Positions 11,553-13,374 of a stretch of DNA of 16,161 nucleotides are shown here, in pieces; position 1 is the stretch's first letter; every line of letters begins with the position of its first letter. The notes beneath the pieces were generated by a model. That model ran no database searches, was not told where the DNA came from, and saw only the letters and a program-made list of their open reading frames with translations. The position numbers and the translations under genes are program-made. The DNA comes from a virus (taxonomy: Duplodnaviria; Heunggongvirae; Uroviricota; Caudoviricetes): positions 1 to 16,161 of IMG/VR virus record IMGVR_UViG_2737471845_000010, one strand, 5' to 3'.

Positions 11553-11750
11553 ATGCAGAAACGAGAACCCGTCATCATCGCGCCAGACTATACCGATGAT
11601 GAACTTTATGAGTGGATGCGCCAGAAAATTAATGCAGCGCAGGATTTGAAATGGGCCAATGAAGCTAGGGCTAAGCAGGCTGAAAATCTGTCCGCTCTGG
11701 AGCAGGATATCACCAGGCTGGAAAAAGCAGCGGCATTAAGCATTGCCTGA
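11553..11750 (+). CDS. small hypothetical early-left protein (65 aa)
   Basis: RBS AAGGAG 6 nt upstream of ATG; coiled-coil-like C-terminus. Confidence 0.65.
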   Translation: MQKREPVIIAPDYTDDELYEWMRQKINAAQDLKWANEARAKQAENLSALEQDITRLEKAAALSIA

Positions 11751-11793: not shown

Positions 11794-12201
11794 ATGGAAT
11801 TTAAAGATTTACCAAAAGAAATCCAGACAATTGCTGCAACGACTCTCGGTGATAGTCTGGTGAAAATTGACCCGGCATACACCAAAAAAGAAACCATCGA
11901 TAATATGGTTCGTAATGTGCGCAATGCTTTTTCTGGGCTATATGGTTCTGATAATCAAAAGCAGGAAAGCGATGTTAATAAACGGGTAATTTCTGTTTGC
12001 GTGAATGGCCATGTTCTTTCATCAATCAAAACAGAAACGGCGACAGTCTTCGATTGCCTTTGCATTGTACAGAGCCTTGTTGATGCCCTGTTTCGTTCAG
12101 TGAATTTAGAAAATGACGCAAATCTGCGAGGGCGCACAATAGCACATCCATATGCACATACTTTAGGCTCTGTGGATATCAAAGATCCCACAAATCTTTA
12201 A
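11794..12201 (+). CDS. hypothetical early-left protein (135 aa)
   Basis: RBS-like ACGAGG upstream of ATG; 3' end overlaps the convergent minus-strand gene by about 23 bp. Confidence 0.6.
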   Translation: MEFKDLPKEIQTIAATTLGDSLVKIDPAYTKKETIDNMVRNVRNAFSGLYGSDNQKQESDVNKRVISVCVNGHVLSSIKTETATVFDCLCIVQSLVDALFRSVNLENDANLRGRTIAHPYAHTLGSVDIKDPTNL

Positions 12202-12412
12202 TGAAATAGTTAACGCGAATTGTACTTGCTCTTTCAGTTGCTTTCAGAATACGCGTTGAAACTGCTGGCGGTAATTTGGTATTCCATTTATTAAAATCAT
12301 GCCCGGGAAAGTACTCTTCGAAAATACTTTTAACTGCAGACTCGCCTATTGAAATGCTGCTTACCATGCGATTTTGATAAAGGCATTTAGCAATAAGAGT
12401 TGATTTTAACAT
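12179..12412 (-). CDS. hypothetical 77-aa protein encoded opposite to the early-left operon
   Basis: Strong RBS AGGAGGG 4 nt upstream of ATG 12412; convergent 3' overlap with the 11794..12201 gene. Confidence 0.55.
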   Translation of the reverse strand: MLKSTLIAKCLYQNRMVSSISIGESAVKSIFEEYFPGHDFNKWNTKLPPAVSTRILKATERASTIRVNYFIKDLWDL

Positions 12413-12747
12413 TCACCCTCCTGAAGGTTGGTAATTAAGGAGTTCTCCACGGGTGGGGTGGAGTGCGTGCGCCGGACACGGGTGAGCATCCGGCACTGAC
12501 AGTTTACTGAAAGGATATTTCTCTGAAAAGTCAGAGCATAACGCGAAAGCGCACGGCGAGGTTGCTGGTTCATAGATAGCCTGTCGTTAAATTTTCGTCG
12601 ACCGTGCGCTTCCGGTTGTGGCACCCCGCGAAATGGCGCGGCGGTAAGTATGGCGGGGTTATCCTTACCCCCACTGGTGGCACCGGGTTGTCAGGTTGAC
12701 CATACGCCTGAGTGACAACCCCGCCACAACATCTCCATGTTGAGGCT

Positions 12748-12802
12748 TGTGTGAGACCTTTGGCGGCATCAGTTTAATTGCTGGCTGATGTCCGCCCTTT
12801 TT
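12748..12802 (+). ncRNA. dicF: DicF-like small RNA (cell-division inhibitor sRNA family) ending in an intrinsic terminator
   Basis: Sequence …CCTTTGGCGGCATCAGTTTAATTGCTGGCTGATGTCCGCCCTTTTT closely resembles my recollection of E. coli DicF (GGCGG…AUCAGUUU…CCGCCCUUUUU). Long imperfect hairpin GGCGGCATCAG / CTGATGTCCGCC plus T-run. Located directly upstream of a dicB homologue, as in Qin. 5' boundary is approximate. Confidence 0.55.
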
Positions 12803-12985
12803 AAAGTGAATTTTGCGATGCGGTGAATGCGGCTAAGCGCACGCGGAACAGTTAAAAAGGCCAGTTGACTTCCGTATTGGTTCTTATGGGTGGGTTCTCT
12901 GTATCCGGCGTTAATTGTTAACTGGTTAACGTCACCTGGAGGCACCAGGCACCGTATCACAAAATTCATTGTTGAGGACGCGATA

Positions 12986-13174
12986 ATGGAAACGTTATTA
13001 CCAAACGTTAATACGTCTGAAGGTTGTTTTGAAATCGGTGTCAGAATCAGTAACCCTGTATTTACTGAAGATGCCATTAATAAGAGAAAACACGAACGGG
13101 AGCTATTAAATCAAATATGCATTGTTTCAATGCTGGCCCGTTTACGCCTGATGCAAAAAGGACGCTGCCAATGA
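12986..13174 (+). CDS. dicB: DicB-like cell division inhibitor (62 aa)
   Basis: Translation METLLPNVNTSEGCFEIGVRISNPVFTEDAINKRKHERELLNQICIVSMLARLRLMQKGRCQ is near-identical to the E. coli DicB sequence as I recall it. GAGGA RBS; the tracked ORF's upstream extension is not needed. Confidence 0.8.
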   Translation: METLLPNVNTSEGCFEIGVRISNPVFTEDAINKRKHERELLNQICIVSMLARLRLMQKGRCQ

Positions 13175-13374
13175 ATACAGCATTTGCACTCGTTCTGACA
13201 GTTTTTCTTAATACAGGCGAACCAGTCGATCTTGTTATTGGTATACATGACTCAATGAAAGAATGCATGGCTGCCGCAGCGGAACAGAAAATTCCCGGCA
13301 ACTGTTATCCGGTTGATAAAGTTATTCGCATGGACAATAACGAAATCCCGGCAGGACTTAAAACAGCACCGTAA
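13171..13374 (+). CDS. ydfD: YdfD-like small membrane/lysis protein (67 aa)
   Basis: ATG overlaps the dicB stop (ATGA). N-terminal hydrophobic helix AFALVLTVFL, then …CMAAAAEQKIPGNCYPVDKVI…, resembling Qin YdfD from memory. Same gene order as Qin dicB-ydfD. Confidence 0.6.
   Translation: MNTAFALVLTVFLNTGEPVDLVIGIHDSMKECMAAAAEQKIPGNCYPVDKVIRMDNNEIPAGLKTAP

Follow-up and report, generated by a model that had tools for sequence, protein, structure and literature searches.

Comparative evidence for an autonomous structured RNA domain in the DicF leader of lambdoid prophages and in P1-like phages

The DNA analysed here (the window, 16,161 nucleotides of the IMG/VR virus record IMGVR_UViG_2737471845_000010) is, judging from its sequence, a lambdoid prophage of Escherichia coli. 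It is 100% identical to the genome sequence NZ_CP059835 across the 851 bases tested. In the annotation of NZ_CP059835 the early-left genes run from Cro/CI-type regulators and an HTH repressor through small early genes, including ydfC, and two hypotheticals to a gap. The gap is followed by dicB (12987-13175), a DUF1482 gene, an exonuclease and an integrase, and no PGAP feature is annotated between the 77-aa gene that precedes it and dicB. The part of the gap from the 77-aa gene to DicF, 12413-12747, is the region under study; it is read on the + strand, like the early-left (PL-type) operon.

An earlier note on this DNA had placed the region where the prophage Qin carries ydfC. Qin, in fact, has ydfC followed by the same spacer of 340 nt (ydfC ends at 1649041 and dicF starts at 1649382 in K-12), and ydfC of the window is found upstream of the leader, at about 11553. 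It appears as a 65-aa frame (11553-11750) in the list of open reading frames of the window, and as a gene of 219 nt in the PGAP annotation at the matching place in NZ_CP059835. A two-gene insertion (11794-12201 on the + strand and 12179-12412 on the - strand), absent from Qin and from phage Tritos, separates ydfC from the leader. The two inserted genes are convergent, encode 135 and 77 aa and overlap by 23 nt at their 3' ends; they match phrog_1363 and phrog_10348, both of unknown function, and the pair looks like a moron-type insertion. A mosaic joint lies at about 12423/12424, as the homology to phages without the 77-aa gene begins at window position 12424 (base 275 of the query).

The description of the region as GC-rich, structured, repeat-dense and non-coding is borne out. 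Its G+C content is 0.51–0.59 over 12475-12775, compared to 0.37–0.45 in the flanking genes, and every repeat that had been listed is present: GCCGGA/TCCGGC (12471-12476/12489-12494, repeat I21), ACCCCGC/GCGGGGT (12623-12629/12653-12659, I12), GGGG...CCCC (12655-12658/12669-12672) and two direct copies of GTGGCACC, at 12618 and 12677 (D5). GCCGGA/TCCGGC is the invariant hairpin of the leader module that we call A, and GGGG/CCCC is helix P3a of the conserved fold described below. The pairing of CCCCGC with GCGGGG is not conserved; K-12 reads AACCCGC, and CCGCG pairs locally with CGCGG. The second copy of GTGGCACC is peculiar to the window, GAGGACACC being found elsewhere.

The absence of a convincing + strand reading frame is likewise confirmed, the longest being 31 aa with a GTG start. 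It is very improbable that the region is a decayed protein gene, as the earlier note had considered, or a promoter or operator that serves the 77-aa gene at the level of DNA. A 72-aa frame with a GTG start does lie on the - strand (12406-12624), and the 77-aa gene, which has a strong Shine-Dalgarno sequence, needs a promoter somewhere upstream of 12412. However, no conserved ORF was found in the homologous regions, the substitutions are compensatory changes in RNA helices whose G-U pairs fix the + strand, and the same sequence occurs in many phages without the 77-aa gene. The consensus scan of 12413-12750 found no sigma-70-like site on the - strand and no recognisable promoter upstream of the 77-aa gene.

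Comparison with K-12 identifies 12413-12747 as the untranslated leader of DicF, homologous to the ydfC-dicF spacer of Qin. The two are 93–95% identical, and a three-way alignment of the spacer from the window, K-12 and phage Tritos has a mean column identity of 93%. The leader is matched in 4425 of 5426 complete E. coli genomes, at least 80% of its length being covered in 3504 of the 5426. The surroundings correspond to the dicBF operon, with a repressor, small early genes including ydfC, the leader, dicF, dicB and an exonuclease. K-12 Qin and the window share the order leader, DicF, dicB, DUF1482 gene (at the position of ydfD) and exonuclease, as well as the long stem and the structured core described below. 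They differ in the two genes that the window adds between ydfC and the leader, and in the seed region of DicF.

In K-12, the polycistronic transcript from which DicF is excised initiates at dicBp, as Ragunathan et al. 2023 (PMC10448788) report in confirmation of Faubladier et al. 1990. A species of 190 nt owes its 5' end to RNase III, and the 53-nt DicF is produced by RNase E; inactivation of RNase E causes the longer form to accumulate, and loss of RNase III abolishes it (PMC10448788). No internal promoter was found in the dicBF operon, and the DicF-terminated transcript is prominent in K-12, where the core is intact (PMC10448788). The reading of the region as a precursor leader processed to release DicF, which the earlier note had put forward, is thus already published for the K-12 homologue, and the identity between the two spacers extends it to the window. 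The alternative of an additional small RNA holds in part, as the 5' 120–130 nt of the 190-nt species form a separately conserved structured domain. In the literature searched, the leader figures as a processing substrate, with no description of a conserved folded domain or of its presence in P1 or other phages. The 340-nt leader of DicF has hitherto been treated only as sequence to cut away.

DicF was among the first bacterial small RNAs to be described. The DicF of the window (12748-12797) matches RF00039 over its full length with 45.4 bits (E = 1.6e-08, permissive Rfam search), under the gathering score of 48, and is clearly homologous to it by sequence, with a divergent 5' half. Its 5' single-stranded half reads UGUGUGAGACCUUUGGCGG, compared to UUUCUGGUGACGUUUGGCGG in K-12, and it may therefore pair with a different set of targets. 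A weak, sub-threshold match to STnc100 (34.9 bits, gathering score 47) spans the whole DicF-dicB spacer (12795-13018), and a partial STnc100 match lies upstream of tciA in the ban operon of P1 (L004, 3842-3961). This suggests a second conserved non-coding element 3' of the DicF terminator.

Searches with the leader alone reveal that it is a mosaic of modules (Table 1). Hairpin A3 looks boxB-like, its 5' half (CCCUGAAAA) being common to lambda boxB. Module B, also called stem B, is an imperfect duplex of about 24 bp whose covariation support is weak, since few pairs vary in it. The 5' end of the 190-nt precursor, predicted by counting 190 nt back from the K-12 DicF 3' end, falls at about 12609, in the 3' arm of the duplex. 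This makes module B the likely RNase III processing stem, cut near 12609. In K-12 itself, the covariance-model match starts 3 nt 5' of the base at which this 190-nt count ends. The base of stem B, CAUAAC at 12537-12542 with GUUGUG at 12615-12620, competes with helix P1 of the core. The 3' strand of the linker hairpin, AUGUUGAGGC (12737-12746), is a near-copy of the 5' strand of P1; linker-type pairings are similar in many, not all, variants. By analogy with the K-12 literature, the RNase E site that generates the DicF 5' end should lie just downstream of the linker.

Table 1. Features of the DicF leader and its borders in the window. Paired strands are separated by a slash.
Feature	Position	Strand	Basis or remark
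Shine-Dalgarno sequence AGGAGG of the divergent 77-aa gene (12179-12412)	12417-12422	-	Read from the sequence
Module A, three hairpins	12424-12536	+	Also occurs alone in phage phi367
Hairpin A1, CTCCAC/GTGGAG	12445-12463	+	Swapped for a different hairpin in a second sequence type
Hairpin A2, GCCGGA-N12-TCCGGC	12471-12494	+	Invariant
Hairpin A3, CUCUGA-AAAG-UCAGAG	12521-12536	+	Most copies CCCUGA/UCAGGG, one compensatory change
Module B, long imperfect duplex (12537-12559 with 12598-12620), apical part variable	12537-12620	+	RNAalifold (16 sequences), single-sequence fold
Conserved 5' flank of the core, GUGCGCUUCC here, GUGCUCUC(A/U) or GCGCUCUUUU in other types	12605-12614	+	
Core, four-way junction with putative pseudoknot	12615-12730	+	RNAalifold, pair counts, model R1 (150 bits)
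Core helix P1	12615-12622/12723-12730	+	
Core hairpin P2	12626-12630/12637-12641	+	
Core helix P3, encloses P3a	12643-12645/12682-12684	+	
Variable hairpin P3a	12655-12658/12669-12672	+	
Core P4 (9+3 bp) with invariant loop	12685-12693/12713-12721, extended by 12694-12696/12706-12708	+	
Putative pseudoknot, GUAUGG with CCAUAC	12648-12653/12700-12705	+	Added to the RNAalifold helices
Linker with alternative hairpin (12723-12732 with 12737-12746, AUGUUGAGGC)	12723-12746	+	Inverted repeat I6
DicF-type sRNA with divergent 5' seed, terminator hairpin (12765-12792) and T-run	12748-12802	+	Rfam, terminator scan

The 3' third of the leader, corresponding to the 5' two thirds (120–130 nt) of the 190-nt precursor, contains the conserved domain. 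Folding of the single sequence gave z = -2.67 relative to shuffles on the + strand and z = -5.42 on the - strand. As the + strand value is only moderate and the other strand does better, thermodynamics alone cannot settle the structure, and the case rests on comparison. The helices contain many G-U pairs, which are A-C mismatches on the opposite strand, and their frequency assigns the structure to the + strand.

The analysis of folding and covariation across homologues yielded a conserved multi-helix structure supported by covariation. About 200 loci were collected from scans of IMG/VR. From a MAFFT alignment of 27 sequences, RNAalifold independently predicted P1, P2, P3 with P3a, and P4. With the pseudoknot included, 95.3% of the cells pair, and 16 of the 38 pairs carry changes on both sides. 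None of 500 shuffles matched this, and controls in which the pairing was slid gave 1–6 compensatory pairs. The covariance model R1 finds exactly one match in each of 97 loci (97/97) and scores 150 bits in the window and in K-12 alike. In the alignment of these loci 97.0% of the cells pair and 16 of 32 pairs are compensatory, compared to 2–5 in the slid controls. The pseudoknot is nearly invariant, with a single compensatory change (GCAUGG/CCAUGC in phage P1) and one wobble, and we consider it plausible. Comparative sequence analysis thus provides good support for the core, about 116 nt long, as an autonomous, strongly conserved structured RNA domain.

The core corresponds to no Rfam 15 family, either in the window or in four other contexts, at gathering or permissive thresholds; what the Rfam searches of the window and of four related loci returned was DicF and a weak STnc100 match. 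As an autonomous structured RNA, the core is described neither in Rfam 15 nor in the literature searched. A tRNA-like reading was discarded, since ARAGORN found no tRNA and the only related Rfam match was mascRNA at chance level (15.8 bits, E = 4.1). A MITE-like repeat, suggested by the flanking inverted repeats of 8 nt, was likewise rejected, as the core is present in a single copy per prophage, in a constant context, and has compensatory changes in its internal helices.

The core is the most widespread module of the leader. It occurs without modules A and B in phage cdtI, 2H10, Stx2c phages, Salmonella phage F1055, a phage deposited as an Actinobacillus phage, P1, P7 and P1-like phage-plasmids. 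In phage P1 it overlaps a feature annotated as 'dicF-like region'. Across the phage, plasmid and E. coli collections, the hosts include Escherichia, Shigella, Salmonella and Klebsiella. The core is always co-oriented with the early operon; in lambdoid and P1-like phages it is part of the early-left or ban leader. In 2H10, a near-consensus PL-like promoter precedes it by about 270 nt. It follows the repressor gene at about 350 nt in cdtI, F1055 and pPE4, and the C1-controlled ban promoters (Pban) at about 40 nt in P1 and P7. Model R1 detected no further copy on the PR side, whether in the window, the 2H10 genome or the 97 loci. On the PR side of the immunity region of phage cdtI (L007, 40-228, - strand), there are above-threshold matches to the C4 antisense RNA (68.4 bits) and to isrK (60 bits), which are unrelated to the core.

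The core is also tied to a terminator. A hairpin followed by a T-run begins 40–80 nt after P4 (30–70 nt past the core) in 118 of 124 unique instances, and in four of the remaining six a T-run follows a hairpin that is long or mutated. An adjacent terminator is absent only in IMG/VR contigs of the L081, L252 and L060 type. There, the core is located within about 1.8 kb of G+C-rich sequence (about 4000-5820 in L081), in which no convincing ORF or Rfam match was found and which may be a larger non-coding region. In Qin-type leaders the terminator that follows the core is the 3' hairpin of DicF itself, so that the conserved unit, core plus DicF-type terminator, corresponds to the 190-nt RNA of K-12. 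Stem B is missing from the copies of the cdtI and P1 types, in which the linker measures only about 12 nt. No protein gene is common to the lambdoid and P1 contexts, which points to a host partner or to an RNA that acts alone.

A natural deletion separates the core from the rest of the leader. In phiSTEC1589-Stx1c (L340, 2686-2702), modules A and B and DicF are kept, while the core is exactly replaced by the four bases AAUA, in the junction GGUUGUG-AAUA-ACAAC. The AAUA junction is common to 38 IMG/VR contigs (L344-L381). It can form a boxB-like hairpin, with a 5-bp stem and the loop GAAUA, directly 3' of a boxA-like stretch. Since stem B and DicF can be retained when the core is lost, DicF biogenesis as such does not depend on the core.

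The phages with the deletion differ from those with the core in the antitermination protein N. With tblastn queries of four N types (lambda, phi21-like, 933W-like and the STEC type), N was detected in 22 of the 25 core-deletion loci that have at least 2.5 kb of upstream sequence. It was found in none of the 153 core-bearing loci, within -5 to +3 kb. PHROGs matches revealed no N-like protein among the early-left genes of the window, 2H10 and F1055, and a screen for arginine-rich motifs returned only repressors and spurious ORFs, and no N. When loci are clustered by upstream context, N is present in none of 20 core clusters and in two of five deletion clusters; both large deletion clusters have N, and the three consisting of single loci do not. 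The association between core and N holds in this sample, which comprises few independent lineages, and is phylogenetically shallow. Several different N types share the one deletion junction, which makes cognate recognition of the boxB-like hairpins doubtful. The core, tied to a terminator, tends to be absent where N is present and is common to lambdoid prophages and P1-like phage-plasmids of Enterobacteriaceae.

These observations suggest a model of how the leader might work. An early-left polycistronic transcript (PL-type, the dicB operon) would cross the leader on the + strand. RNase III would cut stem B near 12609, giving a precursor of about 190 nt, from which a cut by RNase E in the linker would yield DicF. 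The core with its DicF-type terminator hairpin would represent an ancestral unit heading the early operons of temperate phages without N. In this unit the core would influence, in cis, the RNA polymerase that transcribes it, either by itself or by way of a host factor. It would set the choice between stopping at the DicF terminator, which gives the small RNA, and read-through into dicB, the exonuclease gene and then the excision and integration genes. In the Qin type, stem B would sequester the 5' strand of helix P1, and cleavage by RNase III would let the core close.

A role of the core in cis, in the decision between termination and read-through at the DicF terminator, in the manner of the put RNAs of HK022, is our tentative proposal, to which we give somewhat less than an even chance. 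We infer it from the persistence of DicF and stem B without the core, from the terminator that follows the core and separates an early promoter from the early-left genes, and from the occurrence of the core in phages that have neither N nor a shared protein. The invariant loops imply a specific partner. Against this role count the single copy of the core, with none on the PR side, the shallow association with N, for which four N types were searched, and the L081, L252 and L060 type without an adjacent terminator. As the DicF-terminated transcript is prominent in K-12 with its intact core, constitutive strong antitermination is unlikely. Since P1 competes with stem B in Qin-type leaders, it is uncertain that the full core folds co-transcriptionally; its strands double as the base of stem B and the partner of the linker, and P1 may thus form only after RNase III cleavage. 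A more specific possibility is that the core represents a novel cis-acting RNA class, carried by most E. coli genomes in lambdoid prophages and P1-like phage-plasmids, which would alter the host elongation complex without a phage protein. As a second and structurally unrelated counterpart of put, it would decide between a DicF-type small RNA and read-through into the genes for the cell-division inhibitor, recombination and excision; we regard this as on balance unlikely.

It is conceivable, with a chance of perhaps one in four in our judgement, that the core instead serves as a maturation or stability domain of DicF, which would protect the 190-nt precursor and position RNase E at the linker. 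The alternative pairings (stem B or P1, P1 or linker) would then determine the order in which RNase III and RNase E act. Inactivation of RNase E leads to accumulation of the 190-nt species, which is stable (PMC10448788), the predicted 5' end of this species lies 6 nt before helix P1, and both competing pairings (CAUAAC/GUUGUG and 12723-12732/12737-12746) are present. However, N-encoding phages retain stem B and DicF without the core, the cdtI and P1 types have no stem B and only the short linker, and a protective structure would need neither invariant loops of 20 nt nor a pseudoknot.

Rather improbable is a third role, as a sensor or binding domain, either a riboswitch-like aptamer acting on the terminator or a part of the 190-nt RNA to which a host protein would bind in trans. 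The junction supported by covariation, the invariant unpaired nucleotides and the pseudoknot would suit such a function, as would the intrinsic terminator directly 3' in about 97% of instances, and the presence of the core in unrelated phage types that have only the host in common. A covariation-supported, aptamer-like fold followed by an intrinsic terminator is what a riboswitch would present. Yet no conserved, mutually exclusive pairing between core and terminator was found, and neither a ligand nor a partner can be named, the linked genes having no common metabolic theme. As for an expression platform, the linker hairpin competes with helix P1 and does not touch the terminator. An antiterminator pairing of riboswitch type with the DicF stem was rejected, because the candidate, CCGCCA/UGGCGG, can form in the Qin type but is disrupted by mismatch in the cdtI type and is missing from P1.

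Whatever its function, the core is a well-supported, uncatalogued family of structured RNA, suited to inclusion in Rfam and to structural study. If it controls termination, as we propose, this would explain how N-less lambdoid phages and the ban operon of P1 pass the terminator at the head of their early operons. It would be the second antitermination or attenuation device made of RNA only, beside put as the single known example. Such a switch would be present in more than 80% of complete E. coli genomes, where it would govern toxic prophage genes (dicB, kil-like) and excision.

Among known systems, the lambda-type nut sites resemble the core in their position in the PL leader. The boxA consensus is GCUCUUUA. 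The stretch of 8–10 nt directly 5' of P1, conserved across types, is GCGCUUCC in the window and GCUCUCAG, GCUCUCUU or GCUCUUUU elsewhere, which agrees with boxA at 4–7 of 9 positions, depending on type, and is a loose match, too weak for an assignment. The core is about eight times larger than boxB, and the phages that bear it have no N (0/153). The put sites of HK022 (putL and putR) yield antiterminator RNAs that act in cis, without the help of protein factors, and suppress termination by binding the zinc-binding domain of the beta' subunit of RNA polymerase. Like the core, they belong to the early-operon leader RNA of a temperate coliphage without N, have no dedicated phage protein and lie upstream of terminators that have to be passed for early gene expression. 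However, put has about 70 nt, two stem-loops and two copies (PL and PR), whereas the core has about 116 nt, a four-way junction with a pseudoknot and a single copy, and model R1 has no match in the HK022 genome at E up to 10. We therefore rejected membership of the core in the put family, from which it differs in fold, size and copy number.

The Listeria SAM riboswitches SreA and SreB are coupled to terminators, and their terminated product acts as a small RNA. Their ligand sets them apart from the core, which has no known ligand or conserved antiterminator pairing, and DicF is released by RNase processing. The overall arrangement is nevertheless alike: in both cases, a conserved structured 5' domain is followed by an intrinsic terminator, and the terminated RNA, DicF in the case of the core, has a trans-acting role as a small RNA.
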